A stretch of 64,000 nt of DNA from Azolla caroliniana (taxonomy: Eukaryota; Plantae; Polypodiophyta): contig JBHGNT010000004.1 of NCBI GenBank assembly GCA_043228905.1, positions 8,804,001-8,868,000 on the forward strand, in the 5' to 3' direction. The notes beneath the pieces are model-generated. The model was not told where the DNA came from. It did no database searches and worked only from the letters and a program-made list of their open reading frames with translations. The translations under genes and the position numbers were made by a program. This document shows positions 13,001 to 47,618 of the stretch, in pieces (within the stretch, counting starts at the first letter, position 1; every line of letters begins with the position of its first letter).

Positions 13001-14495
13001 CGTCAATATTAAAATAATAAAATTGAACCGCAGGATCAATTACACACGAATAAATTAATGAACTAGAATACTCACTTAAAGATTTAGAAGACACAAGTGA
13101 ATGAGAAGGAAGTTTGGAACATTGAATAAAATGTTTACAATTATTAAGTTCAAATGTGATTGAGTGATTAACCCAATCAATGGACAAAGAAGGGTTTTTA
13201 TTAAAAAACCAAGGATATCCTAAAATGACATCTGCGGATTGTAATTTCATAACATGAAAGTCAAGCTTCTCCAAATAAGTATCTATTTGAATTGGCAGTT
13301 GACAAACAATGCCACTGATGTATTGAACGTTTCCATTTGCCATGTGAACTTGATAGATATGATCACTTGCGTTTATGTGGAGCTCCATTTGCTGCACAAA
13401 GTGATCATTAAGAAAATTGTGAGAACTACCGGAATCAAACAAGAAATGTGCTTGTGTTCCATTGATATATCCGACTGCTCGGAGTAAATCATTAGGTCCA
13501 AGTAAATGTGAAGGAAAAGTGCATTCACATAAACTTAAGTGATTGGTATGAACTTCAACAATATCAAAAGACTCACCTGTGTGACTCGTAGATTTGTCTT
13601 GAGGAGGGGTGTTCATTGACTTCCTCTCAAGACGACGACAGGTATCCTTTGTGTGGCCCCGCTTCTTGCAATATGCACAGAAGAGGTTCGGTTTCTTTGA
13701 GTCGCGGTCAAGAGTGTCACTGGATTGCTTACGTTTCCCAATGAACTTGACATTCGGAGTTTTGGCGAACTCAGGTTTATTGTGGTCTTTCTTGGAAGTC
13801 CTATGGTATCGCAACACAATGTTGACGGCTTCCTCGAAAGTTGTGGGGTCCTTGTCATGGACAATCCAATGATAATCCCCATTGGGAATACCATTCAAAA
13901 AACAAGCGACAAACCATTTCTCACCCGTAAGTCCCGATTTTTGGATCTGGGTCCGAGCGTGATGCACATAATCCTCGAGAGAGGTAAATGGCTTACTAGA
14001 CAATGTGAGCAAGTGTTGCGCTTGTTCGGTTTGAGAAGGTGGCTGCAAGAATTGTTTCTTAAAAACATCAACGAAACCTTCCCAAGTTGTGGGTAAGTTT
14101 TTTGTGGTCGTTAGGCCACGCCACCAAGCAGCAGCTCGGCCACCTAACTCACGACCGACATAACCAATTTTTACTGCATCGGGCTTGGGATGAAGCTCAA
14201 AGTGAGACTCCCAACGACCAAGCCAAGTGCTAATGGCCTCCTCGGTTCTTTCTTTCTTATCTCCCTTGAAAGGCGTGACTACGAAGGAAGGTTCACCTTC
14301 TTTCTTGGACTCAATAGTTAATTCTTGGAATTTCTTTTCCAATGCCATATTGGCCTGTCTCATTTCGGCCAATTGATTCAAGGTAGTAGTGAGCAATTGC
14401 TCAATAGTGATCTCAGCTTGTGTGCGAGATGCGGATTGGGGTTGAGAGGTCTCATTTGGAGAGATCGTTCCAACTGCGTTCAAAACTTGTTCCAT
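10092..14495 (-). pseudogene. chromovirus gag-pol polyprotein with one premature stop (11217)
   Basis: ORFs 11217..14495 and 10092..11153 are in the same frame; CAYCKKRGH knuckle, LFDSG, FLDD, ETDAS, GHPG, SDRD, GPF and a chromodomain (EQILD..KW..ATWE). Confidence 0.93.
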
Positions 14496-15335
14496 GATGC
14501 ACGTTGTGGGTATGCAATAAAATAAGGAGGTTCAGAAAATACACAAGCAAAATGAATGCTTGAAATTTTGATTGAAAGAACTTTATCCAAGAAAGTATCT
14601 CATGTCTTTACCCCTCTAGACATATGAGATGTGATTCGAGATCCGATAACTATGGTAACACTATGGTGTTTTAAAAACCATGGGGGAAAACATAGCTAAG
14701 ATGTATTTCTCGGATCTCTATCTTGAGTAATCATGGCGGCTCCCCGAGGCTCAACCATGGTTCTTACATCAATGAAATTTCCTAGATAGCCTTATATTAA
14801 TGCCAACCCATCATGTATTATATGGTCGAGAAAGTGTATTACGTGAAAAAACAAGTGCACTCACAAGTAATATTCTAGTCTTGCGAGCAATAAGCAAATG
14901 TGATGATAAAATGATAAAATAAGGCACTACTCATAAGAGTTAAGTAGTGACGAAAACAAGGGTAAAAAAAAAAGAACCCATGTGTTACCTACGAAAAAAA
15001 CAATGTCACAAATAAATGGGAAGTGCAAGGTATGCACATATACAACCCAATATGATTGTTATAACTTGCACAATTGTGACATAAGCCACAAATTGATACA
15101 AGTGATGACGGTGTTGTGCGCAAAGATGTAATACTCAAATCCATGAGTAAAACATCAATAAGGGAACTCATATGGTTTTACTCGTTTTCTAAGGCTTGAT
15201 GATAAGAGTTAAACCTAGATGACCCGTTGAAAAAAAAAATGCTAACATAACATTGCACACCAATTTACGCACCGATCCGGTTCTCGGCTTGCACAGCCGA
15301 CCTGGCCAATGTTGAGCTTGTATCTCAACATAGAG

Positions 15336-16742: not shown

Positions 16743-19700
16743 TCACGTGATACGTGTGAAAGTGAGTAGTGACTCTCGATGTTCAAGAACTTTACCAATG
16801 AATGTTGCAATCGAGAGTGCACATTGTGGTTGTGAGAGGAATTCATGCAAAGATTGGGCTCGATCGAAGAGATGTGGAAAGCATGGTCGAATATGATCAA
16901 AGGCAGAGCATTGTATCAAAGTGTGATACTCAGACTCGCGAACTTGTTTAGGGCAAAGTGTGCATAGCCGACAACTCTCATCACTTGTACCCCAACGCCC
17001 TGTTTCACATCGCAATGCATGTGAGCTAAGTCGCATGGAAGCAATGGTTCGAATGGCAGATAACGGTATGGGCTCTAACATGTATGGATGTGTACGATTT
17101 CCCCGTTCTGCAAAGAATATGGTTTTGTAGTTAGGTGCAACATGTGTAGTATAATGTGTGAAGCGTGAGCCTCCACATTTGTCCCATGTCATGATACATT
17201 GGCGTTGCAAAAATGCCTCATTTACAGAGGAATCTAATGATGCATCATGAAGCAAGTGTCTCGCATCCCATCTACCAAACCATTTTTCTATATCTTGCAT
17301 CCAACCGGAACACAAAATTTTGCTTTTATGCGTCTTTTGGATCTTTTTGCTTGCTTCCCACGCAATTCTAGGAAGTCGATGTGAGGGACTTTTTTGAACC
17401 TTAAGCATGTATTCAACAACCCTTTCCATGGCCATGATCTCAATGGGAAGCGATCCCGTCTCAAGGAGGAGGAGGGTGTAGGGCGTTTGTTTCTTAACTT
17501 GTAGAAACTTGGTAAGAAAATGCTTTTGGACATTTTCAAACTCTTTCCACATAGACTTAGGGATGCTACCGCCCCATACTTCCACCCCATAGAGAAGAAC
17601 TGGTGTCACCAAAGTGTCAAAAAGATATTTCTTGAGGACCCAACACTTAATATCTCCAAGATTGCATGTGTTCTCAAATGCATAGTATGCTCGTTTGCCC
17701 GCCTCTAAGCGGCGTGTAGCACATTCATTCCATCTATGATTTGAAGGAACTTCAAGGCCAAGATATTTGAAGCTTTCCACACATTCAAGTGGCTCATTGT
17801 TGTACATAATGCATGGTTTATCTCTTTTTTGGCTCTTCACAAGCATAATCTTTGTTTTAGAGCTATTGACACTTAATTTAGTATGCATGCAAAATTTTTC
17901 CATTGCCTTCATAAGCTTTTGTGCATCTCCTAAAGTATTTGCAAAAAGCACTACGTCATCTGCATATAGCAAAAGCATAATCACAACATTCCCAATGGCA
18001 ACTTCTTCAACACATTCTTCCTTTGCAAACTTGGTAACCATTTCTTCCAATTCATCAATGCATAGACCAAATAGTGTTGGTGAGAGTGGGCATCCTTGCT
18101 TAACACCAATAGTGCTTTTGAAAAAATCTGAAAGTTTATCTTTCATGCGCACACAACATATAACCTTCTCATAAATTCGGGAAATTGCAAGCATATATTC
18201 ACTTGGCACCTCAAGTTCTTCCATTCGCCTCCAAAGATGCTCACGAGGTACCATATCAAAAGCTTTCTTGAAGTCTACAAAGCAACAATATAAACCTTTA
18301 CCTCTAAGGCGACTTTCCTCCATTAATACTCGAAGGGTGATAAGGTGATCAATGGTGCTATGGTGTTTCCGAAAGCCAGCTTGTCCATAAGCTCTCTTAC
18401 CACTTTTTTCAGCCCATACACTTATCTTTGATTCCATTATACATCCAAATAGTTTTGCCATTAATGAGCCAACCATGATGGTTCGATAGTTGTTTACATT
18501 ATTTATATCTCCACCTTTATGTAAAGGTTTGATCCAATTTGTAGTCCAATCGTACGGCATACCATGTTGCGATGCATCATTAAACATATCGCTTATCCAT
18601 ATATGTGCTTCCTTTCCCGTCCATTTGAGCATTTCAGCCTTTATACATTGAAGATCGCTTGCCTTTCGAGAGGCCAATTTCTTAAGTCCTATGCATATAT
18701 CTTCAATTGTAAAGAAGGAAGGCATATGTGAAAGAGAACCATAACACATCATCTTTCCGGCAAGAGATAACTCATATAAATTCTTACAATGCATAGACAA
18801 GTCGTGAAGAGTTAAGTCACCATAACTCTCAACACGTTTTCCCTTTAGATTTCCCCAAAATTTAGCACATGCATGTGCTTTCTCTTGCGTTTGGATAAAT
18901 TGTTGAGTAACTTCCCATATTCTTCTCTTTCTTTGAATAAGCCTTTTATACTCATGCAAATGCTTTTGGTAATTCTCTTTATCCTTAACTACATCCAAAA
19001 CCATAAGGCACTTTCGAGCTTCACGACATTCTTTATCAAACCATTTTTTCCTAAGTTTCTTGGTGCATTTCCAAGATGTGCGGTTGGTCGAAAAACATTT
19101 GTTTGTACATGAGAGAATGACTTTCTTGAAAGCTTCCCATTTGCATTCTAGTGTGGCACCATGTTGTATCTTTGTCATTTGTAACATATCCTCAACCATC
19201 TTGGAATACATGGGTGCTCGCTTAAGGTTCATGCTCAAGTGCGGTTGTTTATTATCTTCAATAGCCTTCTCACAATCAAACCTATGCATACATTTGAGAT
19301 CAATACATAAAGGCCTATGATCTGATTCCGGTGTCCATTCACCAAGTGAGAATTTATGTATACGATCCAAAATACCTTCGGAAAGTAGCACATAATCAAT
19401 CACACTATTTCCGTTGTATTTTCTACATGTAAAACCATTAGTGTTGGGCCATAAGGAAATACCATTTGCAATAAGCAATCTGGTACTATTGCACATTTGT
19501 AGGAGTAACTTCCCAAATTGGTCCGGATCTTTTTCATCGCTAGAAGAGCGATTATACATTTGCATATCCTCTTGCATCCTTGAGATATGTGGCATGAAAG
19601 ATTCTTGTGAATCAAGTTGGAAACTTCTTGTACGAGCATTCATGTCACCAAAGACAATAACTTCCCCTTTGGATTTGAAATAAGCAATATCATCTTCTAG

Positions 19701-20117
19701 ATTGGCAAACGGTTGATCTTTATCCAAACAAGCATAAAAGTTAGAATCTTGATGAGGAATGTAACATCCAACAACAAAAGTGGGCAAATCATTAAGTGTT
19801 TCTATTTTGAGCCATATGTAGCATTTATTTTCATCATTTTTTATGATTGACACATATTTCTCTATTTCCTTCTTAATCAAACATGCCACCCCTCCTTGTC
19901 CTCTTCTTTGTCTTGGATTTTTCTTCCATATCAAAGAGTGTACATTATAGTTTCCTAAACCTTGAATCCTTTGAGTATCATGCTCCCATGTTTCAACAAG
20001 AAGTGTGATATCCGAGTCATTGGTGAACTCCTCTATGCCAAATCCCGCATTCCATGGGTATCCATTGCAATTCCAAAAGCATAGTCGTAAAAGGCGTGGG
20101 TTAGTCTCATAGATCAC
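16743..20117 (-). CDS. LINE ORF2: APE endonuclease, reverse transcriptase and Cys-rich C-terminus
   Basis: 1124 open codons with WNCNG, ETW, GDMNAR, IDY, SDH, QAGFR, FVDFKKAFD, GVKQGCPLSP, LYADD, YLG, RLCTLC..H....C. The annotated start codon is GTG. Confidence 0.95.
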   Translation of the reverse strand: MIYETNPRLLRLCFWNCNGYPWNAGFGIEEFTNDSDITLLVETWEHDTQRIQGLGNYNVHSLIWKKNPRQRRGQGGVACLIKKEIEKYVSIIKNDENKCYIWLKIETLNDLPTFVVGCYIPHQDSNFYACLDKDQPFANLEDDIAYFKSKGEVIVFGDMNARTRSFQLDSQESFMPHISRMQEDMQMYNRSSSDEKDPDQFGKLLLQMCNSTRLLIANGISLWPNTNGFTCRKYNGNSVIDYVLLSEGILDRIHKFSLGEWTPESDHRPLCIDLKCMHRFDCEKAIEDNKQPHLSMNLKRAPMYSKMVEDMLQMTKIQHGATLECKWEAFKKVILSCTNKCFSTNRTSWKCTKKLRKKWFDKECREARKCLMVLDVVKDKENYQKHLHEYKRLIQRKRRIWEVTQQFIQTQEKAHACAKFWGNLKGKRVESYGDLTLHDLSMHCKNLYELSLAGKMMCYGSLSHMPSFFTIEDICIGLKKLASRKASDLQCIKAEMLKWTGKEAHIWISDMFNDASQHGMPYDWTTNWIKPLHKGGDINNVNNYRTIMVGSLMAKLFGCIMESKISVWAEKSGKRAYGQAGFRKHHSTIDHLITLRVLMEESRLRGKGLYCCFVDFKKAFDMVPREHLWRRMEELEVPSEYMLAISRIYEKVICCVRMKDKLSDFFKSTIGVKQGCPLSPTLFGLCIDELEEMVTKFAKEECVEEVAIGNVVIMLLLYADDVVLFANTLGDAQKLMKAMEKFCMHTKLSVNSSKTKIMLVKSQKRDKPCIMYNNEPLECVESFKYLGLEVPSNHRWNECATRRLEAGKRAYYAFENTCNLGDIKCWVLKKYLFDTLVTPVLLYGVEVWGGSIPKSMWKEFENVQKHFLTKFLQVKKQTPYTLLLLETGSLPIEIMAMERVVEYMLKVQKSPSHRLPRIAWEASKKIQKTHKSKILCSGWMQDIEKWFGRWDARHLLHDASLDSSVNEAFLQRQCIMTWDKCGGSRFTHYTTHVAPNYKTIFFAERGNRTHPYMLEPIPLSAIRTIASMRLSSHALRCETGRWGTSDESCRLCTLCPKQVRESEYHTLIQCSAFDHIRPCFPHLFDRAQSLHEFLSQPQCALSIATFIGKVLEHRESLLTFTRIT

Positions 20118-20123
20118 GTGTCC

Positions 20124-20993
20124 CTATTTGCCTACATTTCCATCTTTAGGCACATCCTTAACCTTGTTTTTCAATCTTTCTTCATATGCTTTACGACGAG
20201 CATTTTGTTGTGAGATAGTACGATCTTCACTCACAAAGCATTGTGTACCTTTGAGGTATACCCAACTATTTTCGAGTATGATCCGCCGCTTTGTATCATC
20301 TGTCATTGTGCATACAATAGGCCTTTCTCCGGAGCGAGTAACACCATGTTTCCCAACTCGGTGTGCCCCATATACATTCACATCTGACATCCCATAATGC
20401 ATGCTAAAAAATTCACCAATGGCCTTTCCAAGGGATGCGGGTGTTTCCATACTCTCTTCTTTAATCCCACGGACGACAATGTTCTTTGATCGTCGTTCGC
20501 GTTCTTTCAATTCTTGGACATCTATGCTTTCTATATTCTTCTCTTGGTGCATCACATGCATATTAGATGAGTTTGATAACACATCCCCACCACATACATC
20601 GGCCCATGACTTCGTTGTACATACATTTTTCATCTCACTTACATCCCGCCTCATCGTATCCAATTTTTCTTCTTTTAATGGTTCCTTTAACTCAATCTTG
20701 TTAAGGCGCTCATTTGTTTCAAATGAAGCTCTTTTACATTCTTGAATCTCTTCTTGAAGTTTTGCAACCACTTGTTTAAGACTTTCATTCTCAATGACAA
20801 CACTTTGGAGCTTAGTATTCTCTTTCATTAACATCCTAATATCTTCACCTTGCTTGTTTATGGTTTCTTGAAGAGAAATCAAGTGACTCATAAGCATTTT
20901 GTCCATTGCATTAGAATCGAGATTTGTTGGTGATCTCGGCTCATTATCAATCATACCCCCAAACTTTGCGGCGGTTTTACGAGTATTTGCCAT
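20124..20993 (-). CDS. LINE ORF1 (coiled coil plus RRM-like region)
   Basis: 289 aa with ATG start, heptad-rich middle, and RSKNIVVRGIKE..HRVG..RPIV..SED motifs typical of LINE ORF1 proteins. Confidence 0.9.
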   Translation of the reverse strand: MANTRKTAAKFGGMIDNEPRSPTNLDSNAMDKMLMSHLISLQETINKQGEDIRMLMKENTKLQSVVIENESLKQVVAKLQEEIQECKRASFETNERLNKIELKEPLKEEKLDTMRRDVSEMKNVCTTKSWADVCGGDVLSNSSNMHVMHQEKNIESIDVQELKERERRSKNIVVRGIKEESMETPASLGKAIGEFFSMHYGMSDVNVYGAHRVGKHGVTRSGERPIVCTMTDDTKRRIILENSWVYLKGTQCFVSEDRTISQQNARRKAYEERLKNKVKDVPKDGNVGK

Positions 20994-21909
20994 TGTAGGG
21001 ACAAACCGTACGGGAAAAGAGAGACAAAGAGGGAAGGAGAGAGAATGTACCTTTCACTCGATTTAGGGCTTCAAAATCTACCTTCCGTTTGAGGAACCGT
21101 GGGGCAAAGATGGCTGCGGATGAAAGAGAGAGAGATACAGAGTGATACTCTATCATAACCGCCGCTCGGCAAAGAAATAGAGCTCGAGGTCGTTGCCTCC
21201 GAGTCTCTGATTGTACCTTTCTCATATAGTGATATTTTGGAGTCTATGGGCTCCCGTGGTTTTTTCCCTATTAGGTTTTTTCCACGTAAACATCCTGTGT
21301 ATCCTCTATCGTTGTTTGTGTGCATGTGCGTATGCGTACCAATTTCCCTACTTCCCATTTCTGTGTTTGATTCTCATCAACAAGTGATTCAAGACTCGGT
21401 TGTGGCCGAGCAATACTCCGCGCTATTTCCCTCATACCATAAGTTGGTTGAAGATAGAGCTTGGTTAGAAAATAAGGTGTTGGATACATGGAGCATTACT
21501 AGAAATATAAAGTGGTGGCATAGAGTTTTAGATGTAGGGTGGTAGCCTCATCTTCCATTCCGTGCAAAGGTGTTTCTTTGGCATGCCATAGTTGGTGGGC
21601 TGCCTTTGGCAATGACCTTAAAACGAAGACATATTTCGAATGGGACATGTTTTTTCTTGTACGGTGGTTGAAGAAGATGCCAAACATAGGCCATTTGGGT
21701 GATTATGTCACAAATTTGGGCATCGATAATAGAAAATATTTTGTCACTTTATAAATGGGTTTATATGGATGAGGATAAAGTTATGCCCACACCATCATAT
21801 AAGGTGGTTTTTGATTACCTTGGATATTGGGGGATATGGTTTAATTGTACCATGAGAAATGAGTTCTTGTTTGATGGACTTCAAGGGATAACACAACAAC
21901 TCTGTAGGA

Positions 21910-24900
21910 TGAAAGGGAAATTGATTTGGCAACTTTTGTATCGTTGTATGTTGATGATCCAAACTATTGTCATAGACAATCACCCAATCTCCTTCTTCAA
22001 TCCCGCGGTCGTAGTCGATGTTTTGTGTCGAATCGGCTTTTGTTCCTGAATCGTGCTTCTTGTTGTCAGCGTGTTGCTTCCGCTATGTCTTCCGGTCTTC
22101 CCTCTAGTTGTCGTATCTGGACCACTAGTAGTTCTTCCCGGCTCATCTCTTCCTTCTACGGTAGCATTGTCCATGTTGCGATCGCGGTTTCCGTCGGCAT
22201 TACCGGTGCTTGTCCGGTCATAAGTTTAGTCGGCATATAACCGATTACGGAGCTATGCGTCGTCCGATCCGCCGATAGTGCATATGGGAGCATCTGCGAC
22301 CAATCCTTCACCCTTCCGTCGCATGCTTTGGGAAGTGCTTTGAGGATTGGACTATGTCCTCGTTCGATTTTTCCATTGGCCTCTAGATTGTATGCCGTTT
22401 TTAGTGTTAACCGAACTCCATGTTTGGTGAAGAATTCCCTAGCTTTATTAGAGTCGAGTTCTCCCCGATCCGCAATCACTTGTCCTATGCACCCATACTT
22501 GCAAAACACTTATTCCAAAAGGAATTGGCATACCGCAGAACACGTTTTCCTCCATAGCGCTCGACCTTCTACTTGGTTTATGAGATCTTCCTGAGCTAAC
22601 ACCAAGTACTTCTTTTGTCTGATCCCCATTGGCATGGCTACAATGTCAACCGTCCATTTGAAGTTGATTGTCAGTGAGAATGTCGGATGTAACTCGTCTC
22701 GGTGTCGAACTCCGAAGTAGATTTCCGTGAGCTCCACCATATCTTTGTACATATTCTTCCACCAATATTTTTCTTTGATTTTCACAAAAGTTTCCCATGT
22801 TCCTCGATGTCCAGCCCAATCGGATTCGTGAAACTCGGACATTATCCAGTTTCGTTGCTCTTTCATCCCGACTACCCAAAGTGGTATGCCATCCAGTCTT
22901 TTTGGCTCCCTCCATATTAATCCATTTTTCAAGAAGAACTTTTGGACTTGCCTCTTATGCCTTCGGATCTCGGCTCTCTTCTCTTTATCGTCTGGTGATT
23001 CCTCAATCTCTTGTAGCACCTTCCTGATCATCACGCTTTCTCCCTCGTACTCTTCTTCTCGGAATTCTCGGATTACGTTTAACCGACATATGTGCTCCGA
23101 AGCAAAGTAGTCTTCAGAAACTTCTTCATTATTGGATTCAGCTATGTCATCTCTGAACCGAGCCCTTGATAGCATATCCGCTACTGCGTTGTCTTTTCTG
23201 GAGATGTGTCGTACGTCCGGGTTAAGCGACTTAACATATGCAATCCATCTTAGCATAGCCACATCCGGTATCGTGCAACACCGCATCATCCCGAGTATCG
23301 GAAGACAATCCGTTTCGATCACTACTTCGGCTCCGATCAAATAATCTCGATCCGATTTGATTGCCGACATGACTCCCCATAACTCTCTTTTGACTTGTGC
23401 ATACCCGCGTTGTCTTTTGTTGAGAACCTTTGCTCTGAATCAGATTGGATATAGCGAACCATCCGAGTCGGCTTGATTGATGACCCATCTGATTCCGGTT
23501 GGACTCGTGTCAACCGTTACTATGATTGGTTGGTGATAGCTTGGCTTCTTAAGTGATTCCACCCTCCGTAGTGTTTTCTTAAGCTTCTTCATGGCTTTAG
23601 TATGTTCCGGTCTCCATTCGAACTTCTTACCCTTCTGCAACAAGTGATAGAGTGGGCCCGCAATATGTGCATAGTGCGGAATCCATATGTGATAAAATGC
23701 ACAAGCTCCAAGAACCCTTCGGACTTCGGATTGTGACTCGCATACTTCTTTCATAGCTTGAATCGCATTGATCTTGGTTGGTGACGGTCTTTGGCCGTAG
23801 GGCCCACATAGATGTCTAACTACCAATATTTCTTCTTGTCCGAATGCCAATTTCTCACCGGAAAGTGTTAGGTGCACATCTTCTAACTTTCATAGCACTT
23901 TCTTGCAATCGCGAATATGGTCGACTACAAACTGTTGGCATCCCTGATCATCCATAATCTAATCTTTTTCTTCCACCGCGCATCCTTTCATCGGAATGTC
24001 ATCTAGGAACGGCATCGTTATCTCCGGAATGCAGTCTTGAAGCACCTTGTTCATCGCATTCATCATATGTGCAACCGAGTTTGTCGCTCCTTGTGGTAGT
24101 GTGCACATTCGGACTAATCCTATTGGTGTCCGCATGGCAGTGATGTCTCGGCTCTCCACGGCTAGTTGGAATTGTTCATACCCGAGTATAGGTCTCCGAT
24201 GGAGTATATCGCACGACCGGCAAATGCTTCTGCAAATTCGTCCACTATCGGACCGACTCCGGAGTTCCGGATCGTGACTTTGTTCACCGGTTGCAAGTCT
24301 TGGATATTTCAGAGTCACCCATTCTTCTTCGGAATCGTAAATCATCAATTTGAGTATGGAGCATTTGATGGCTCTAGAATCCCCATCGCCACCTTCTCCT
24401 TGAGCAAGTCGATGACTTTCGGAATATGCGCCCGCAGCACTGGAATCGGCTTGAGGTTCCACGGCACATGGTCAATCATGAAGATCACCATCGGTTCCAC
24501 TATCTTTGGATCAGCGCACCCTATCTCCATCGATGTGAACGAAAATGCTTCCCCATGTTGTTCCAACATCCCATGGAATCGTTCTTCTTCATTTTGTAAA
24601 AGGAAACCACCTCCACCAATCCGAAGTTTCTTCCGGGTCTCATCCGTGAAGGCATGTCCGATATCCACGGACTTCCGAAGTGTCGGATCTACTGAGACTT
24701 CTTTCCTCTTTTGCTCGCTATCAGTGGGTAACGGTCCTGCGGCCGGTTTCACTTTCTTCTCCACGGTTTTGTATTTCGTACTTACCATTGCTTCTTCTTT
24801 GCAGAGCGCATCCGGCCCCATTTTCGCAATGATCTCGTACATCTCGACTGATTCCACCGGGACTACCCGGTCTCCTTGGCTTTTATCCTCCACAAGCTCT

Positions 24901-26520
24901 TCAAGCTGTTGTAGCGTGCTCCCATAGAACACTTCTTCGACTACCCCCACGATTTCTTCGTCTTCTTTTATTATTGATGCCGACCGCAACTTATCCTCTA
25001 GTTTCCGGTATTCTTTCTTCTTTTCTTCGGTTACGGCCATGTACGTAGATACCCCATCTAGACCGATTTGTACTTGTTTTGCTCCGAGAGTTTTCTTCCT
25101 GTGTGGGGTACCAGGGCTTCTCGGACTATCACTTACCCACTCCGCAATAGTCCGCTCTAGAAATCCATCCTTCTTTGGGACAAGAGCTCTCTCTTGTTCC
25201 TTTCAGGATTTTCCGGCACAGTTAGGAATTGGACGGATTTCCCTCCGCTTTGGCTCCGAATTCGTGCGAAAGCCACACCGCTATCAAGCACCTTTGTCTC
25301 CATCCGTGAAGCCGTTATAAAGGGTTGCCCGAGGATCATGGAATGGGAGACCTCATCTTGTACGAAGAAATTTTGGTCGATCTCAACATCCCCGATCTTC
25401 ACCGTCACATCCGTACAAGCTACAAATAGATCTTCCGTTGCTTTAGTGGCTGCCCGGATCTTCCATCCATGCATAGTATTTATAGGCCACTTCCCCTTCC
25501 GGTAGAACTCCTTGGACATCAAATTGATCTTCAATCCGTGATCAATCAATGCTAGCACGGGCTCTTTGATGTTGTCGATTCGGACCGGAGTCTCCGTAGT
25601 TGCACGTGCGCAGTGTGGCCTTGTGTAGTGGGAGTTCGGAATTTCGTCCTCCACTTCAGTGTCATTCATTAAAACCGTGTTCACATTTACCCTTGGAGCA
25701 TTCTCCTCTCTACTTTGTCTTTTTCTCTTCACGAGATCCACAAGAAGGTCGCGGAACTCCTTCTTCGCTATTCCGAGTAATTCCCGAAGCGAAAAGTCCA
25801 CCCGACTATCAAGGATTCTCTCTTCAAACACCTTCTTTAGGTCCGTTTGTTGTTCGATGTCCGAGGCGAGTTTGAATGCCAGAATTGTTTTTCCTTTCCC
25901 CTTCCCTTCGGAGTTCCAACTCTCCGGCACCTTTGATGGTCCGACCGCATCATCCGTGCGCCTTCGTTTTTCATCCACATAGATACACTTCATGCAATTG
26001 ACATAGTGCGTGTACACTATTCTTATCTACGGGGCAGTCCCATCCCGTAGCTTCCCGGATACATTCCGCAGCGCTTCGGATTTCATCATGGTTGGCTTTG
26101 TTCGAAATTTCTAGCACTTCCAGTAGAAAAGACGCCTTTGCTCTAGATCACTCCCCCACACGTATTCTCGTGGTTGTCGCATAGTTGTTTTTAGCCGCGA
26201 TCTCCTCCTCTAGAACCTTCTTCATGCCGCCTTTTCGGAAGTTCAGTCGGAGTGGCTTCCGAGAGTCCATCGAATGGATCTGATTTCCCTCGTAGTAGAT
26301 AAGATCCCGTCGTAACACCTCCTTGTGCTCGTCGCAATCTCTCCGATCATGTTCGGTGCTATCACACCATATGCATCGACGGTCCATGTACTTGGAACTT
26401 GTGGGATGGTCTTCCATCTTCTTCACCATCACAATTTTCAGATTCTCCATCTCCTTCAACAATTGCTCCACCGTGGTTGCATCGACTCCCTTCTCAGTCA
26501 TAGTCTCCCGAGCCCGCGGT
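21910..26520 (-). mobile_element. Ty3/gypsy remnant D (same lineage as D2 and G), both ends lost
   Basis: gag CIWC knuckle, ALIDHG protease, LPQGATNSVA/FLDD RT, VDTSPTG RNase H, GHRG/DRGE/THSS integrase; no LTRs found. Boundaries approximate. Confidence 0.88.
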
Positions 26521-27795
26521 TGAACAGTAGTGGGAACGCATCAATTACTCTGGCCGGATTCAGCTTCTGGTATTTCACGCATACCCGAATCTTACCATTT
26601 TCCTTAGTTACTACCACAATCGAGCTCAACCACATTGCTTGCTTTACAGGCCGTATGAACCCGACTCTCAGAAGCTTGTCGATTTCTTCCTTGACCTTCA
26701 CCGCATAATTGGGATTCATTCGGTAATGGCGTTGTGGCACTGGTTTGGCATCCATGCTGAGGTGGATTTGATGTTGATAAAGTTGGGGATCCAATCCTTG
26801 CATATCCTCGTAGGACCAGGCGAATATGTCTCGCAAACTTGTGAGTAATTCGTCCATCGCCTTCTTTTCGACCCATGGCATTTCTTTGGCTACGTTCACC
26901 GGTCTGGGTGTGTCGTCGGTACCAAGGTCCACTTCCTCGAGCTGGCATGCTTTTACTCTTTGGGATATAGTCATTTACCTTTCCAATGATTCTTGTGCTT
27001 GTCGTAACTCCCAGATTTCTTCTTGATCCGGTTCGTCCGATTCCTTTCCCAGGTCCGTCACATATGGTATGACGGCTTCGGTTATGTCTACCTCAAATAA
27101 CGGCTTCGGTTATGTCTTCCAAGTAACAATCGACTTCTTCGTCAGCTAACCCGTCCAACATGTTGATGCTCTCCGCATATAGGGGGGTTACTTCCTTACT
27201 GGTTCCTACTCGTGGTTGTGGCGGTACGCGTACTTTGGTCTTTCCTCGTCGAAAGGTGATTACATTCTTTTGCTAGTTTTGTTTTATGTGCGCCATCCGC
27301 AACCATGGTCTTCCTAGCAACAAGGGATAGCCCCCTTGCACATTAAGTTGTAATACCACTGCCGATATCTGGAATGCGTATCCTTTGATTGTGTTGTCCA
27401 AGTCCTGAATGAGTCCGGTTGGTTGAACTGAACTTGTATCTACCATTCTTAGCCAGAATGGACACGGTTCCCAATCTCGGATTCCCAAGGTGTCACATGT
27501 CCCCTTGCTGATGACATTCACCCCTGAACCACCGTCAATAATGATTCCGGTGATCTCTTTGCCTTTAACAATCACTATGATGGACAGGCTGCTTGTGTCC
27601 ACCATTGCCGGTCCTTCCTCCGGATTGGAGCACAATGCTAGTGACGGCTCCTGATTTGGTGCGGTGAACGTTGTTTTGAGCCCTTCAGTAAATTGGGGGA
27701 CTAATTGTAGCAGGCGCCCCAATGGTAACACGATCTGGCATTCTTGTAATGCCTTCCAAGTTGGGTCCTTGTCGGTACTCTTTACGGTGTTGCGT

Positions 27796-27957
27796 TGTTA
27801 CGCGCGTGCGTGGAGAAAGGTGGGACCACGGGGGTCTTGGACTAGGGGGTGACGGAGCGTAGGAAGTCGTACTTCACCGTTTCCGGGGCATCCCAGAAGG
27901 ACACCGGAAGCAACCGAAGGGAGAGGGAGAAAGAGAGGGAGCGCGCGCTTGACACCG

Positions 27958-28560: not shown

Positions 28561-28861
28561 ACGGGCTCCTCCGGCTGTAAATTTTGCTCCTATATCTCGA
28601 CCACATTACGTTCATAGGCTTTCTTGATCCATTCGGTGGCTTGCTTCTGGATATGTTCTTGAGTTTCTCACTCGACCGTTGTTCCTTTGGAACGGGTAGC
28701 GACTTGCTAGATGTCGGTAACTTCAGCGGTGACCATGTTTACCGCCAGTTGTTTTTCGTTAGCCTTGACCGGACATTGGTTGCTATAATGCCCATCCTTC
28801 TGGCAATAATAGCAATATGCCTTACGGTTGCTGCCTGATTCCCTCTTGTCCATGTTTCTGT

Positions 28862-29564
28862 TATCGTAGTGTATTCCACACACAGCGTGAAAACCATAAA
28901 ATAATATATCCGATTTAGATACATATAAATAAATAAATAATATATCAAAACATTTATCACGTGCATAGGGCAGGATTCAAACCTTGCACCTCCACGTAGA
29001 TAAACCCCAACTTTACCATTGTAATAACTTATCTTTAGTGTTATACATATAGATTTAATACGTATAAGACCTTTATTTACACATACCTTTATTAAAAGGT
29101 AAAAATCATGTATTCTTTAGGGTGTGAATATTTTATTTACACGTGACATTGAAAGTGACTCATGCACATCTAGCGTGCATGAGCCCTATATTTAGGAAAT
29201 GACAAAGCATCACATGCACATTCAGTGTGCATGGACACTTTTGGTGAAAAAGCATGGAGCCATGCTTAGCCTCTTCCATGTTTATATAAGGAGGAGAGAA
29301 ATATGTATAAGGTTGTTGATTAATATACAAGGATTGATCAATCTAATATATTCGTGGGATTCACGAATTTTGCCATCAAAATTACTCTGATAATCTAAAT
29401 ATTGTTTTAAATACACTAAACTCGTGGGATTCACAAGATTGCTATCTTACTTCTCTTTCTACTATTCATAACTAGCCTTAAGTTGTATTCCTCTTCCTCC
29501 TAGTCCAAAACCTCGGCGGTTCCCACCCAACTCACGCAACGATCCATAGCCGAAAGGCACGACA
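28862..29564 (+). repeat. gypsy solo LTR with antisense tRNA-like cassette
   Basis: TATCGT (from TGTCGT)...GCACGACA ends, 4-bp TSD CTGT/CCGT, TATATAAG near 29283; shares blocks with 47968-49087 in inverted orientation. Confidence 0.8.
28973..29026 (-). promoter_or_regulatory. degenerate tRNA-derived A and B box cassette
   Basis: Minus strand TATTACAATGG...GGAGGTGCAAGGTTTGAATCC; 20/21 match to 48476-48496, same 32-nt spacing. Confidence 0.65.
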
Positions 29565-30332
29565 CCGTTCTGTGCATCGAAGGTTATCCAGCGTATGTCC
29601 TCCGTTTGTCGTTGCTTCGGTGGTGTCACAACGGTGTTTGTGCTTCTTGGATTGTACTCTCTGGCTGCTTCCCGACGCTTTTCCCTACGAAAATACCCTC
29701 ATTTTTGGTTGCGTCGGAAATTCCGATTTCCTTGTCATTCTAGATAGCGTCTATCGTCCCTTCTCCGATCGTAATCCAGGGAGTAGTCCCGTTCATACCG
29801 ATCTCGGTTGTAGCCTACCCTGTGTCGGTCGTCACAATCGCACTCATAATCGTCGTGTCTTCTATCATTGTCTTGATTCCCACATTCTGGTTGGTATCGT
29901 TCCTCCCTCCGGAACCGTTCGTCGTCCGGTTCATGACTGCGACGTGGTTTAATGTTCCGCAACGGTGCCTCTTGTCGGTTGAGCAGGTTGTACTCGCATC
30001 GGTCCGTTGTGTGTGCCCGTGAGTGGCATATCATACACTACGTCCTCATTGTGCAGTCTACCGTTGAATGGCCCGAGTTTAAACACATTGTGCATTGCAA
30101 CGCCTAGCGAACCCTGAGATCCTCCTTATTCGGAAGGGCCATATGCAGGGCTCCCATCGTCATCAGAGAGCTATGTTTATCCATTTCTAGCACTCGATCG
30201 ATGATTGTTACCAATTAGGAACACGGTCTACGGTCAGTCCTTCGACCTAGACCTCAAAGTGACTGTGTTGCAACGAATGGTAACGCCGTACCGTAATACG
30301 TAATGGGATACTTCCCTGTATCCTAGTAGCGT

Positions 30333-30946
30333 TGTCTAGGTATTCCTCGCGGATGCGTGGAATGAGGCGGAACCTCGGGGGTCCTGTACCAAAGAGCAAG
30401 AGAGGAAGGGGAAGAAACCCTCTACGTGCGAGCGTAGATCCACAGGGACACGGCCCTTCGACGCAAAGACGCAAGTGGGACAGCGACACAGAAAGGCACG
30501 AATGTATGTATGTATTAACAGAGGAAAACAACAAGAACACGAAGTCGGTTACAACCGAACAGGCCGGCGAACAGATACCGATGCCTATTCGTAAACGCAC
30601 AGAAAGACAGGAGCAGGTTGGAGGTGCTGCCGGAAGCACTCGGGCATTCCTCAGAGCAGCGCGAGCCTCCCGAAACCTGCACAGAAGGAAGCTATGGAGT
30701 TTGCGAACCAGAGAGAGAGAGGGAAGCCTTCGCACGCAAACCGACAACACTTCTTCCTCGACTCTCCGCGATCCTTCGCCGCTCCTCATCTCCCTCCTTT
30801 TATAGCCAAGGAAGGAGTCGTTTCCCTACCTACCGAATCTACCGGCCTAGGAGATTCTATGTACAACATAAGGCGCATGTGCACGAAGAGCCGGTTCCTA
30901 CGCTCCGGTGCACCGATTCCGCTTGTGGACGGTTTTCTTCATGACA
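30333..30946 (-). repeat. 3' LTR of D2
   Basis: Highly similar to 36639-37283 apart from a 31-bp indel in AAGAACACGAA-type repeats and scattered substitutions. Confidence 0.95.
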
Positions 30947-31019
30947 TCCGCCCCCACCTAACCGCGCATCCACCGGCATGCGCCAAATTGTGTTGGGACG
31001 GAGAAAACCAGTCCAGCCT

Positions 31020-34000
31020 TCATTCTCCGCCCGTCGGTTCTTCTTCGGTTTCGGATCGTTCGTCGTCACAGTCCAGGTTAACCGGATCCGGCTCGTCATC
31101 GTGACGCTTCTTGAACGCTTTGATCCGCTTCCCAGCTACGGGTATCGCCATTCTTGTGCCGTCGAATTCCGCCAGATGGTACGTTCCGTTGTCGTTGGCG
31201 CTTTGTACCACGTAAGGCCCGAACCATCTTCTTGCGAACTTCCGTGTCGCTCGGTGCTGGTTGTCGAGGCTGCTGTCATAGACTAGCACCCAGTCGCCTT
31301 CCTCGACCTTCTTCGGTCGGAGCCGGTGCGTCCGATCGAACCGGGCTTTGTTCCTCGTCCTAGCCACCCGAAGCTTTTCCGCAGCCTACTCCACGTCCTC
31401 CGGTCTTCGCTCGAGCTGTCGTATGCGCGCCGCCAACAGTTCCTCCCGGCTCATCTCGTCTCTCCAGTCCAGGGTTGCCCATGAGGAGATCGTACGTTCC
31501 ACTGGCATGATCGGCTTCTGCCCAAACATCAGCTCTGCCGGCATGAATCCGGTTACCGAACTGTGCGTAGTTCGGTTCGCCCACAACGCGTAAGGCAACA
31601 GCCGCGGCCAGTTCCCGACTTGACCTCTGCATGCCCGAACTAACGCCTTGACGATCGGTCCGTGTCCGCGCTCCACCTTTCCATTCACCTCCGGATTGTA
31701 CGCAGTGGTAAGCGAGAGCTTGACTCCTAGCCGGTCGAACAACTTCTCGGCCTCTTCGGCGTCCAGCTCCCCGCGATCAGCCACGATCTTCCTGACGCAC
31801 CCGTACCGGCATATCACGTCCTCAATCAGGAACCGACATACGGCCGCGGTCATTTTGTTCTGAAGGGCTCAGCCTTCTACCTGGTTGGTCAGATCTTCCC
31901 GAGCCAGGACCAGATACCGCATCTGTCCTACTCCCATCGGCATCGTCACCAGATCTACCATCCATTTGAAGTGGATGGTCGGAGGGTACGTAGGGTGAAG
32001 CTTGTCCCGATGCCGGACTATGGAGTGCATCTGACAGCTCTCGCAAGTTGTCACGAACCGATGCACGTCCCGGTACAGGCCCGGCCACCAGTACTTCCCC
32101 TTTATCTTCTCGAACGTGGCCCACGTTCCACGGTGTCCGGCCCAAGGGCTGTCGTGGTAGCCCGTCAGCAGCTCCTCCTGTTCTTCCTTCATCGCCACCA
32201 CCCGGAGCGGGACACCGTTCCTCTTCTTCGGGTGCTTCCATAAGTATCCGTCCCGGAGAAAGAATCGGTAAGCTTTCTTCCGGATCCGGTTGGCCTCGTC
32301 CTTCGTCCACGACGCATCCGGCGTCATCGTCCTCAAAAATCCACCGATTTGGAGCCACTCGCCGTCGTATTTGCTCTCGTCGAAGTCGTTAAGTGCCGGA
32401 GTGCTCGTCCCATCGGTCGTCACGTACGCTGCCTCGAAGAAGTCCACGCCGACTTCTTCGTCCTCCGAAACCATGCCGCCCTCGTCATCAAACCTCGCCC
32501 TCGAAAGCATGTCAGCCATGGCGTTGTCTTTTCCGGAAATGTGTCGTATTTCCGGGTCCAGGGACTTGATGTACGCTATCCACCTGAGCATCGCCAGGTC
32601 CGGTGTCGCGCATCCGGAAACCATGCCGAGAATCGGCAGACAATCCGTCTCGATAACCACTTCTATCCCGATCAGGTAGTCTTTGTCGGCCTTTACTGCC
32701 GAAACGATACCCCAGAGTTCGCGTTTAACCTGGGCGTACCCTCGCTGTCGGTCACTGAGAACCTTCATGCCGAATCGGATCGGGAACCGAATGCTATCCT
32801 CGTCTTCTTGGTTGACGACCCACCCGATCCCGGTCGGACTCGTATCCACTGTTATGTATTCCGGAGCGCCGGTGCTGCCGCAAGAGCTTCCTTCAGCTTC
32901 CGGACCGACTCTGTGTGCTCGTCTCACCACTCGAATTTTCGCCCTTTCTTCAGCAACCCGTATAGCGGCTCCGCAACGTGGGCGTAATGCGGGATCCATA
33001 TGTGGTAGAACGCGCATGCCCCCAGGAACCTCCGAACTTCCGTAACCGAGCTACAATCAGTCTTCATCGCAAAGATGGCTTCTACCTTTGCCGGAGACGG
33101 CTTCCGGCCATAAGGTCCACATAGGTGTCCGACCACCAGGATTTCCGATTGCCCGAAGGCCGATTTCTCCCCGGAGAAGGTGAGCCTCACATCCTCTAGC
33201 CTCTGTAGCACCTTCTCGCAGTCGTCGATGTGTGTCGCCACGAATCGCCGGCATCCGTCCGGCCTGACTGTCTCGTCCTTCTCCTCCACCGGGCACCCCT
33301 TGATTGGGATGTCGTCTAGAAACGGCATGGTGATGTCCGGGATGCAATCCCTCAGTACCTTGTTCATTGCATTCACCATGTGGGCCACCGAGTTGGTCCC
33401 TCCTTGTGGCAGGGTACACATTCGCACTAGGCTGAGGGGAGTTCGCATCGTCGTAATATCTCTGCTCTCCACAGCTAGCTGGAACTGGTCGTACCCCGAG
33501 TACAGATCAGCGAGTAAATCGACCTTCCGGCGAAGGCCTCCGCGAACTCGTCTATGGTCGGTCTGATTCCTGCGTTCCGAATGGTCACTCTGTTGACCGG
33601 CTGCAGGTCTTGAATGAAGCGCATCGTTCCGTTTTTCTTTGGTACGGTAAACCATCGGTTCGAGTATGGGGCACTCGACGGTTCGAGAATGCCCATATCT
33701 ACTTTCTGCCTCAATAGCTCCATCAACTTCGGGATGTGAGCTCTCGGTACTGGAATCTGCTTGAGATTCCACGGCACATGCGGTACCGTGAATATCACCA
33801 TTGGCTCCACGATCGTCGGGTCTGCGCACCCGATCTCGTCCGGTGAGAATGCGAAGGCTTTCCCGTGCCTTCCGAGCATTCTCCGAAACCGGCCTTCCTC
33901 CGCCGGCAGTAGGAACCCGCCCCCACCAATCTTGAGCTCCCGGAGCGTCCCGTCAGTGAAGGTGTGTCCTATGCAGGCCGGATCTCGTAAACTGGGGTCC

Positions 34001-34477
34001 GACGCCACCCCTCTGATTCGGGACTCGCTGCCCTCTAGTAAGGGTGCCGCGACTGGCCTTACCTTTCGGTCCACATTCTGGTCGGGCCGTCCGATCCGAC
34101 CCGAGCCCCCGACTGAAGTTCGCGATGACTTCGTACATCTCTTCGAAACATACCGGTATCGTCCGGTCTTCGTTAAGGTCTTCTCCGGCAACCTTCCTCA
34201 ACATCCCCAAGGTGTCGTCGAAGGAGACCGCCTCCACGGCTCCGTTGATTTCCTCGTCCGGGCCGAGAACTCCGCACGCTCGAAGTCGCACTTCCGCCCT
34301 TGTCTTTTCTTGCCCAACGATGCCGACTATCATACACCCTTCGTCGCCGGAGAAGCAGAATTTTCTACCTATCGTACAAGGTTTCTTCGGTTTCGGTTCT
34401 ATCGTACAGCTGTGGGGTCTTTCCCGAGTGTCCGGACTGTCTCGGCCCCATGCCTTGGCAGCCCTCTCTAAAAATCC
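31020..34477 (-). pseudogene. D2 RT-RNaseH-integrase ORF (-1 frame relative to gag-PR)
   Basis: YSGYDQF, LPQG, FLDD, VDTSP, GHRG, ADRGE and WFGPY motifs spread over frameshifted ORFs. Confidence 0.9.
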
Positions 34478-36622
34478 TCCCGGTTCTCGCCACCGAGGGA
34501 TTCACGGTTCCGCTCGTGGTTCGGTCTCACGGTCAGAATTTGGACCGAATGGCGCCCGTCCTGGCTTTTGACCCTTGCGTAGGCCGAACCGTTGTCTAGC
34601 ACCTTGGTCTCCATTTGCGCCGCCGTGATGTATGGTTCACCTAATATGACCGGGTGCGAAGACGTCTCCTGTACGAAGAAGTGTTGGTCAATCTCGACGT
34701 CGCCGATCTTGACTCGCACGTTCGGGCAGGCCCCATGCAGTTCCTCGGTGGCGCGCGTCGCCGCCCGTATCTTCCACCCGTGCTTGGTGTTGATCGGCCA
34801 CTTCCCCTTCTTATAGAAGTTCATGGACATTAGGTTTATTTCCGAACCGTGGTCCACCAACACCACCACCGGTTCCCGAACATCTCCGATCTTTACCGGG
34901 GTCTCCGTGGGTCGCTCGGGCCCAGTGTGGCCTCGAATAGTGGCTCTCCGCCCACTCATCTGCCAGCGCCGAGTCGTCGATGTGCGTCGTCCGCACCTCT
35001 ACCGGTCTTTCCGGATCCGTCTCCGTCGACAGCCTCTTCCGTTTCACCAAGTCTACAATGGAGTCGTGGAACTCCTTCTTGGCGATCCCTAGCACCTCCC
35101 GCAATGACAGCTCCACCTTGCTGTCGAGGATCCATTCCTCTAGGACCTTCCGTAGGTCCGTAGTCCTTTCTATTTCTGTCCCCAGTCGGTATCCGCCCTT
35201 CCTGGGGTTATCTTGCGAGTTGGGCCCGCTGGCATCGTTCCGTCATTGCCCGAATCGGGTCTCGTACCGTTGTGAGGGCCCGGCCGCTCCGGCTTTCCCC
35301 ACTCGTTTGTCCTCTACCAGAGCCTCGTAGTTCCGGTAGGCGGCTTCTACGAAGCCCGTCTTCTCCTCGACCGGATCGCTCCACCCGGTTATTTCCCGGA
35401 CCCGTCTCTCAGCGTGGTCCGTTTCATCTTTCCTTCGCCGTGCGCCGGCAAGACCTCCCAGCATTGCCAACCAGAATCCGTCTTTGCCCTCTGTTCGGGC
35501 CTCGCTGCCCCCGACCCGAATTCCGGCCGACGCCGAGTAGTGGATGGCCTCTACGTGTCGGGCCGCTGCCTCTTCCATCAGTCTCTTCATACCTCCTCGC
35601 CCGTCGTTTCGGTTTAGGGTCCTCCTGGTGTCGCCGGCGTGCACCCGGCCTTCCCACAGGTACACCACCCAGTTCCTCAACGCTTCTGCGAAATCGCCGC
35701 AGTCCTTCCGGATGTGGCCGACCTCGTCGCACCACATGCACCTGTTCCTTGCTGCCGGCCATCGGTCACGAGCCGGTTCGCCGCCTTCCCTTCGAGTCTG
35801 GGCGATCTGGAGATCCTTTATCGCCCGCGTCAATTCCTCCAGCGCTGCTCCTCCGGACGAGCCACTGACCATGCCGGTCGAAGCCGGTCCGGTCCCGAGC
35901 CATTCCCGGGTCTCTTCCCTTCGCACTTGCGGTGCCGGTTCAAGCCTCCTTGCTGTGACAGAGCCCGCACCGGCCGCCCCGTTGTCAGCCCATTCTCGCC
36001 GTTTATCGAAACGGCCACAGACTCTCCTAACCGCAGCCCAATCGGTTGTCAACCCGTCCTCAGTTTCCAGCAAGGAGCCGCCTTGGTCCCGGTCCCGCTC
36101 GTCCACCGACTTGAAGAACAGTAGGACCCGGCTCGTATCCAGAATGGTTCGGTCAAGCGCCGAAAGGCGCGCAAAGCGTTCCTCGAACTCCCGGAGGAGT
36201 GCCGTCGCGTTTCTTCCCTTGCCGGGGAACTCCACCCATTCCATGAAGTCCCGTTTCGAAAGCCAGAGTGCGTCGTCCAGCCCGTATTTCTCTAGGAGTC
36301 GGCCTTCGAACTCCTCCCAGGTACGGCTCTCCGCCCGCACCTCGAGCACCTCTGCATGGATGCTCGGCATCGCCACTCAAGGAAACCCGGCAAGACGCCT
36401 CTCTTCCGGAATGTCCCGCATCAGCATTTCTGCCCCGTACGACGCCAAATACTTCGTGACATCCTTTCCGCTGAACCGGCCGATCGTACCGACGACCGCC
36501 TCAATGGCTCTGTCGAGGGCGCCGGTGCCCTCGCGTGCACTCAATATCCGATCTACGGCCGAAGCCATGGCCTCTGCAAGATCCGACCCTTTCATCTTCT
36601 GCTCTTCTACCGCCTCCTTCAC
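34468..36622 (-). pseudogene. D2 gag-protease ORF
   Basis: ORFs 36377..36622, 35243..36376, 34811..35116, 34468..34959; CMWC..GH...C knuckle, LVDHGSEIN protease; ends REDF*. Confidence 0.88.
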
Positions 36623-36635
36623 GTCGGGTTCACCA
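36618..36635 (-). promoter_or_regulatory. PBS of D2, tRNA-Trp
   Basis: TGGTGAACCCGACGTGAA, 3 nt from the LTR, complements the plant tRNA-Trp 3' end (UUCACGUCGGGUUCACCA, recalled from memory). Confidence 0.85.
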
Positions 36636-36638
36636 AGA

Positions 36639-37283
36639 TGTCGAGGTATTCCTCGCGGATGCGTGGAATGAGGCGGAACCTCGGGGGTCCTGTACCAAAG
36701 AGCAAGAGAGGAAGGGGAAGAAACCCTCTACGTGCGAGCATAGATCCACAGGGACACGACCCTTCGACGCAAAGACGCAAGTGGGACAGCGACACAGAAA
36801 GGCACGAATGTATGTATGTATTAACAAAGGCAAACAACAAGAACACGAAAACAACAAGAACACGAACACAGGAACACGAAGTCAGTTACAACCGAACAGG
36901 CTGGCGAACAGATGCCGATGCCTGTTCGTAAACGCACAGAAAGACAGGAGCAGGTTGGAGGTGCTGCCGGAAGCACTCAGGCATTCCTTAGAGCAGCGCG
37001 AGCCTCCCGAAACCTGCACAGAAGGAAGCTATGGAGTTTGCGAACTAGAGAGAGAGAGGGAAGCCTTCGCACGCAAATCGACAGCACTTCGTCCTCGACT
37101 CTCCGCGATCCTTCGCCCCTCCTCGTCTCCCTCCTTTTATAGCCAAGGAAGGAGCCGTTTCCCTACCTACCGAATCTACCGGCCTAGGAGATTCTATGTA
37201 CAACATAAGGCGCATGTGCACGAAGAGCCGGTTCCTACGCTCCGGTGCACCGATTCCGCTTGTGAACGGTTTTCTTCACGACA
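36639..37283 (-). repeat. 5' LTR of D2
   Basis: TGTCGAGG...CTTCACGACA; adjacent to the PBS. Confidence 0.95.
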
Positions 37284-47600: not shown

Positions 47601-47618
47601 TGGTGAACCCAACGTGAA
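47601..47618 (+). promoter_or_regulatory. PBS of G, tRNA-Trp (one mismatch to the D2 PBS)
   Basis: TGGTGAACCCAACGTGAA. Confidence 0.82.

Follow-up and report, generated by a model that had tools for sequence, protein, structure and literature searches.

How the reverse transcriptase (RT), RNase H (RH) and integrase (INT) of a retrotransposon are translated when the upstream open reading frame, holding Gag and protease (Gag-PR), closes in a different frame is a question raised at three sites of the window, the 64,000-nt stretch of Azolla caroliniana DNA analysed here (genome 523 Mb), in which LTR retrotransposons and one LINE are nested. The sites belong one each to three related Ty3/gypsy families, named D, D2 and G, all with a DUF4100 Gag, protease, RT, RNase H and integrase. 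Gag-PR of ~710-750 aa ends at the site and pol of ~1150-1200 codons (RT, RNase H, integrase) begins there. As all three window copies are decayed, the signal was judged on family members. A covariance model of 21 junctions (including D, D2 and one G family member) matched the window at these three sites and nowhere else. The sequences indicate that a conserved recoding signal following the protease, with pol out of frame, is real. The reading that we favour, to which we give a probability of roughly 65%, is that the lineage slips -1 after the protease on a pseudoknot signal and that the clade of G has switched to -2.

The D-family element occupies 21940-26523 on the minus strand, where the 3' part of gag, the protease and pol (RT, RNase H, integrase) can be followed through several stops and frame breaks at 87% to full-length members. 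The D2 element (30333-37283, minus strand) is full-length but decayed, with LTRs at 37283-36639 and 30946-30333 that are 96-98% identical, a target duplication ACGC and a tRNA-Trp primer site at 36635-36619. The G-family element lies on the plus strand (47203-59412) in the pieces 47203-47967, 49091-52094 and 57891-59412, with its primer site at 47601, and is split by a copia-type insertion (52097-57794), whose gag ORF contains three 69-nt tandem units at 54190-54397. Other features were also observed in the window. D gag is joined at 26523-27800 (minus strand) to part of another gypsy element, which has its own protease-like ORF (27276-27797, with a weak Peptidase_A2B match) followed by RT-like peptides, and a D-family LTR, apparently a solo LTR, is found at 28860-29569 on the plus strand, 94% to a full-length member and running opposite to the D body. 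At 16743-21053 (minus strand) lies a LINE-like element, identified by eye and close to intact, with a 309-aa ORF1, a single stop and then a 1126-aa endonuclease-RT-like ORF. At 10092-14531 (minus strand) there is a young-looking gypsy element with Gag-PR-RT-RH-INT in a single frame and one stop at ~11217, which provides an in-window contrast without a frameshift. Two ORFs of 264 and 174 aa at 38906-40225 (minus strand) had no Pfam match.

The three families can be described as Phygy-like, a lineage for which the available text of Neumann et al. (2019; PMC6317226) gives NCGN target duplications and a tRNA-Trp primer site. From 40 elements fetched, 33 were resolved, and matched target duplications were found for 7/7 D, 7/9 D2 and 12/17 G elements, with all 26 being NCGN. 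A single primer-site motif was present in all 37 elements reported, its complement being the 3' end of the host tRNA-Trp(CCA) genes (3/3 loci scanned of 63 matches). These 63 genome matches to the tRNA-Trp 3' motif include tandem clusters at G000:C8:17796786-17823371 (14 listed) and G000:C16:4989495-5105657 (23 listed), with a spacing of ~1.2 kb on C8. Pfam analysis of one intact G copy identified DUF4100, a weak protease match, RT, one RNase H and integrase, with no match to a chromodomain or a second RNase H. Named homologues are from Physcomitrium, Adiantum and Riccia, with the close ones from Physcomitrium patens. Membership therefore draws on the duplications, the primer site, the domain order and the P. 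patens homologues, and the likeness to Phygy covers the NCGN duplication, the tRNA-Trp primer site and the lack of both a chromodomain and an archaeal-type RNase H (aRH). In size the families differ: G (7.9-8.2 kb) fits the 7656-9968 bp (7.7-10 kb) listed for Phygy, whereas D (7.1-7.4 kb) and D2 (6.8-7.3 kb), spanning 6.8-7.4 kb, fall below it. Viral contigs that were scanned held no relatives. Proteins resembling one distant homologue proved to be basidiomycete proteases for the most part, a lead only.

At the D junction the Gag-PR frame ends on the slippery heptamer G GAU UUC (25160-25166, minus strand; G GAU UUU in most D copies) and the stop UAG (25159-25157), and the -1 frame, reading GFLERTIA, is open for 42 codons and through the ATG at 25040. 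An 11-bp stem 1 (25122-25154, minus strand; fold z -2.2) pairs 25154-25144 with 25132-25122, and its loop GUGGG (25140-25136), the 5' strand of stem 2, is complementary to CCCAC at 25107-25103; the 3' strand of stem 2, CCCCAC (25103-25108, minus strand), lies 14 nt past the core hairpin and would complete a predicted pseudoknot. At D2 the heptamer is G GAU UUU (34471-34477, minus strand) with the stop UAG at 34470-34468, and the -1 frame is open for 48 codons to the ATG at 34333. The heptamers with their stops, the -1 frames open for 42 and 48 codons, and the D stem with its loop pairing had been described in the initial annotation and are borne out. That annotation had also proposed a D2 stem GGGCUG/CAGUCC with loop pairing UGGGG/CCCCA (34413-34464, minus strand; hairpin 34464-34434, stem-2 3' strand CCCCA 34417-34413), for which the letters and the pairing are present but the structure is weak in the window copy, its fold being no better than shuffles (z -0.2).

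Family members, taken as the best 30 of 150 scored matches per family, carried G GAU UUY-stop in 29/30 loci of D and likewise of D2, and the -1 frame was open for at least 150 codons in 23/30 loci of each. Among 21 divergent junctions compared, pol lies in the -1 frame in 20, and 19 of these 20 -1-type junctions have a G GAU UUY or G GGU UUU heptamer at the end of Gag-PR. The presence of the heptamer at this position is not due to chance, because in-frame G G[AG]U UU[UC] away from ORF ends occurs only twice per 21,977 codons. GGAUUUU and GGGUUUU are the -1 sites of RCNMV and BYDV, respectively. Three further families of the same genome are also -1. Of 80 metagenome loci, 75 come from one assembly series, so they added families rather than hosts; 13 were without a complete protease end and 23 without a downstream pol match, leaving 44 scorable, in which the first pol match is in -1 in 39, in +1/-2 in three and in frame in two. 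The five non--1 loci have short open frames and look decayed. The canonical arrangement for -1 frameshifting is found in D and D2, with a heptamer that is read in phase with the upstream ORF, the downstream ORF in -1 and, for a structure expected 5-9 nt downstream, a covarying stem 6 nt past the heptamer by homologous column. On these sequence features, it is very probable that D and D2 use -1 frameshifting.

Related protein ends occur in homologues that are labelled as moss, fern or liverwort or carry no label. Of 120 homologous proteins, 55 have DF as their last residues and a further 33 finish in PL or PF, the latter typically a few residues past DF or GF. Four loci (L126, L135, L141 and L153) form another -1 class, with the stop of Gag-PR located six codons past the heptamer, inside the stem; their proteins end in ...PL or ...LL, which matches fern-labelled protein ends. 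A search for longer, fused PR-RT forms returned 16 proteins, all of them Riccia sorocarpa gene models. The seven with a locatable junction have 49 to 135 residues to the first pol motif, differing between models, and a DF-L-x-R join is present in none of these seven. As judged from the protein models alone, the fused forms are read as predicted introns bridging the junction.

For the analysis of RNA structure, 39 junctions were kept, comprising 32 metagenome loci (passed by an open-frame filter independent of structure) and seven of this genome, two of which are window copies; one more metagenome locus was dropped as having no U-run. Removal of junctions at least 90% alike left 21, and these align gap-free over the heptamer and on to the end of a 31-nt hairpin (12+7+12). 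The mean z of the hairpin is -3.3, with values below -2 in 16/21 junctions; in four flanking windows such values were reached by 0, 0, 3 and 2 of the 21. When stem 1 is taken together with a stem 2 of six pairs, the paired fraction of cells is 81.5% versus 73.9 +/- 1.1% in shuffles (0/500), and slid partners, used as a control, gave 36-41%. Covariation, suggested as a check in the initial annotation, is present: both partners are altered in 13 of 18 pairs (9/12 in stem 1, 4/6 in stem 2), in counts that ignore relatedness and refer to a structure derived from the same 21 sequences. Stem 1 is well supported. A search of four loci against Rfam identified no frameshift family at E up to 1; one chance CRISPR-repeat match was returned, away from the junction.

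The pairing of the loop with the downstream strand, giving a predicted H-type pseudoknot, is moderately supported. Loop 3 would be 11-16 nt, and stem 2 would consist mostly of G-C runs, 74.6% paired in fixed register. The shortness of stem 2 (2-7 bp, and only 2 bp in one family), its G and C runs and a register varying with loop 3 would fit a simple stem-loop driving -1 shifting without the loop pairing ever forming, and such an explanation, if improbable, deserves some weight. It is opposed by the changes on both sides at four of the six stem-2 pairs, and by a stem-2 run that is longer with a family's own loop (5.24 nt) than with the loops of other families (4.63 +/- 0.15 nt; 0/2000), the run falling to 3.27 nt in windows further downstream. 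A held-out family likewise retains stem 2, having the same heptamer, stem 1 and stem 2 with new pairs in 3/3 loci covering the junction.

The third site, that of G, had been presented as a further -1 site. Its letters and its stem exist (50947-50990), but the frame had been wrongly assigned, as pol lies in the +1/-2 frame. The shift site reads AG GUU UUU GAC UAG (50947-50960, plus strand); in the window copy the protease frame is AAT TAG GTT TTT GAC TAG, the -1 frame reads GGT TTT TGA and is closed immediately, and FLTRTVA, thought to be a -1 peptide like FLERTIA and FLERAAK, is encoded in the +1/-2 frame. Stem 1 has 12 bp and a 7-nt loop (50960-50990), and the stem-2 3' strand is at 51004-51010 (whole structure 50960-51010, plus strand), with stem 2 decayed here and fully complementary in intact copies. 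The window copy also has a premature stop at 50946-50948 (TAG GTT TTT GAC TAG versus CAG in most members), a TAG shared with 8 of 83 G junctions. Frames open for at least 150 codons were found in -1 in 0/30 G loci and in +1/-2 in 18/30. Among 100 loci fetched there were 83 distinct G junctions, 81 of which have no net indel versus an intact copy and keep the +1/-2 offset of pol; CAG GTT TTT GAC TAG is exact in 55/83, and AG GUU UUU is in frame in most.

The genome has 101 exact matches to the G stem pattern, and no G stem with a -1-type head was found in it with one mismatch allowed. A genome pattern search for a second -2 family gave 102 matches, at least 100 of them G-like (all among the matches listed). 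A sister family with 74% identity to G ends in DQVFY and groups with G at 100/99; it is absent from this genome, where the best matches (68%) are the G family itself. Four other organism labels (C, D, E and F, from two studies) have contigs that span the G junction gap-free, one contig starting just 30 nt before it. In trees, G is placed with -1 families with support of only 81/74 (pol) and 86/76 (protease), with an outgroup too distant to root; a switch from -1 to -2 is the direction suggested by the number of -1 relatives on these unrooted trees. A low-depth DNA contig of run X15 (24 vs 624) skips 67 nt over the G junction, ending GA..CC (L106:2681-2749), and is probably a deletion in an old copy and not a splice. 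In three G-derived loci (L098, L099 and L100) the protease frame runs on to sequence near the 3' LTR, with a 758-aa ORF in two, and these are apparently deletion derivatives without pol.

Family G is not dead. In 17 resolved elements, out of 20 chosen for a long Gag-PR, 12 full-length copies combine a pol ORF of ~1150 codons with an LTR identity of at least 99.5%, and six of the 17 have no LTR substitution. Of 19 full-length copies whose junction was matched, 12 retain an uninterrupted pol of 1154 codons. The shared pol polymorphisms of these 19 copies have a pN/pS of 0.11 (22 vs 54), with singletons at 0.73, and RT differences from other organisms in four runs fall at third positions in 27 of 31 listed, or by codon 27 synonymous versus 3 non-synonymous. 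These patterns point to recent activity and to purifying selection on pol; the pol protein has thus been needed while the offset remained unchanged.

Taking these results together, the following mechanism can be proposed. The majority of ribosomes would terminate at the site and yield Gag-PR, while a minority would pause at the pseudoknot, slip on G GAU UUY and continue to Gag-PR-RT-RH-INT. Abundant Gag-PR and a rarer RT-RH-INT fusion, as the lineage may make, would resemble the gag-pro/pol arrangement of avian alpharetroviruses. In the -1 families the A-site UUU would be U2-U4 of the run and slip to U1-U3; in G it would be U3-U5 and move two steps back to the same U1-U3, a -2 slip. The product in G would be QVF-LTR, in register with DF-LER, giving a shared junction peptide ...F-L-x-R-T, and a -1 slip in G would meet UGA immediately. 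The U-run and the hairpin have an identical register relative to pol in all families, and the nearest -1 families read CAG GAT TTY TAG where G has CAG GTT TTT GAC TAG, so that the stretch from CAG G to the U5 run has one base fewer in G than in these relatives. The distance from the A site to the homologous stem is 6 nt in 20/20 -1 junctions and 5 nt in G; counted to the first true pair it is 5 nt in G and also 5 nt in 7/20 -1 junctions (range 3-7), which makes the shorter spacer a modest argument that fits -2 and is no proof of it. As the pol frame is closed 10 codons upstream in 6/23 G copies with long pol, any shift is confined to the last codons of Gag-PR. That G makes its RT by a -2 shift on an RNA pseudoknot alone, through a one-base switch from -1, is judged rather likely on this reasoning, slightly less so than the reading for the lineage as a whole. 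Transcriptional slippage was considered and rejected, as the run has just five U and no run-length indel is present in 83 junctions.

If -1 frameshifting is accepted for D and D2, a -2 shift is the clearly favoured route to pol in G, although the re-pairing of the P site would be poor (GUU to AGG) and the sequence alone gives the same frame for -2 and for +1. A +1 shift near the Gag-PR stop, as in Ty1, Ty3 and antizyme, therefore has to be weighed, and according to the available text of PMC5009743 it is by +1 shifting that this frame is reached in most known cases. The head CAA GAU UUU GAC, found in 2/83 junctions, would suit +1 and permits no -2 re-pairing; one of the two is the intact young copy L200, which has identical LTRs and may have been copied in trans. 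However, the last codons contain no motif of the Ty1, Ty3, PA-X or antizyme type as these are generally known, UUU to UUG is not cognate re-pairing, and the U5 run and stem hold the register of the -1 families. Decoding of the stop codon would moreover require the stem to be open already, as the stop shares bases with the first stem pair. We consider +1 unlikely. Only marginally less probable is that the pol of G, perhaps of the whole lineage, comes from a spliced or separate RNA or from internal initiation, the hairpin being otherwise used, for example in packaging. CAG|GU at the G site is donor-like, there are in-frame YAG acceptors 178, 181 and 220 nt further on, an AUG in the pol frame first occurs 27 codons past the run, and the Riccia gene models bridge the junction; Ogre, according to the portion of PMC6317226 at hand, is spliced between PR and RT. 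Yet the donor reads GUUUUU and the acceptors are just 29-59% pyrimidines, and the pol frame runs uninterrupted through the would-be intron; across organisms this stretch shows neither stops nor indels, its differences being 10 synonymous versus 9 non-synonymous. The length to the first conserved pol motif is also as in the -1 families, and those families keep the canonical heptamer even without GU there.

It could also be argued that the G junction is broken and copied in trans by the enzymes of -1 families, with the offset a defect, as at least six related families in the genome have the same primer site and one base separates G from its nearest -1 relatives. This defective reading of G is largely refuted by the selection on pol: the ORF of 1154 codons is retained in the 12 of 19 copies given above, and both the pN/pS within the genome and the 27 versus 3 changes between organisms are seen with the offset unchanged. 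No G copy has a -1 head, and the 74%-identity sister family has the same QVF-x-stop end. Its probability is very low, far below that of a +1 shift or a spliced RNA, and a -2 shift remains the preferred reading for G.

The ratio of Gag to Pol in plant LTR retrotransposons is mostly known from splicing (EVADE, BARE1 and Ogre), and this lineage offers a predicted -1 signal of the classical heptamer-plus-pseudoknot kind after the protease. G matters more than the -1 families, since structure-driven -2 shifting on a shorter spacer is so far described just on engineered constructs in the source text available. If the reading is true, the families would form a natural -1/-2 pair on one homologous stimulator and a direct test of the mRNA-tension model, and G would be the first -2 frameshift found for a retroelement or a plant within the literature searched. 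That literature was open-access, and its listings and abstracts described neither this signal nor a retrotransposon that shifts by -2. Cassettes of ~70 nt, matched for -1 and -2, would be a cheap test of structure-driven -2 shifting. For annotation, such junctions are not to be called pseudogene breaks or bridged with introns.

Among plant retrotransposons, the ORF organisation of Phygy is entered as 'ND' (PMC6317226, supplementary file 3), and the signal described here would fill this entry. The layout had been called unusual for plants, which holds in part: a split after the protease prevails in Retand and Ogre, but an overlap of GAG-PROT with RT in a different frame is listed for none of the lineages in the same supplementary file. 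These Tat clade elements are similar to D, D2 and G in that the polyprotein is split between protease and RT; they differ in that an in-frame stop or a spacer/intron, and not an overlap of frames, makes the split (PMC6317226, supplementary file 3), and in carrying aRH and 5-bp duplications. Splicing is the well-characterised plant route to Gag/Pol control in the accessible part of a 2025 review (PMC12786077). Closer in kind are the -1 sites of plant viruses, with which 19/20 -1 junctions share their heptamers, a stop close behind and a structure ~6 nt downstream. In the available text of PMC5009743, G_GAU_UUU is the site of pea enation mosaic umbravirus, G_GGU_UUU is among the shiftiest -1 heptamers, and the viruses use a bulged stem-loop and long-distance pairing, whereas here a local H-type pseudoknot is predicted. 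The pro-pol shifts of MMTV and HTLV differ in needing a first shift between gag and pro, where Gag and protease are here one ORF, and no -2 variant for pol is described for retroviral pro-pol in the texts available.

With regard to -2 shifting, the available text of PMC3458567 reports it to be optimal at a spacer 1-2 nt shorter than for -1 on engineered U6A constructs, and natural cases, as far as given in the part of PMC5009743 at hand, are phage Mu, the arteriviruses and Trichomonas virus 1. Trichomonas vaginalis virus 1 shifts -2 on CC_CUU_UUU versus -1 in TVV2-4, so it is likewise a -2 member among -1 relatives and needs the shift for its polymerase; it differs in being a dsRNA virus of a protist, and a shared stimulatory pseudoknot is not described in the text available. 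The most similar site is that of arterivirus nsp2TF. In PRRSV the -2/-1 site is AG_GUU_UUU / G_GUU_UUU and functions without RNA structure (available text of PMC7618472), with an immediate -1 stop, limited P-site re-pairing and A-site re-pairing (available text of PMC6675879), and G shares AG_GUU_UUU, full A-site and poor P-site re-pairing at -2, and the immediate -1 stop. PRRSV does without RNA structure and relies on nsp1beta and PCBP bound to a C-rich motif 10 nt downstream, and in G the unstructured CCCANCUCC motif is absent 10 nt downstream, the 12-bp stem being there. G shares the arterivirus shift site and not its stimulator, so it is not a member of that system; in place of the protein-dependent stimulation of PRRSV it has a stem of 12 bp with a predicted pseudoknot at a distance of 5 nt, and it is the polymerase of the element that the shift would yield.
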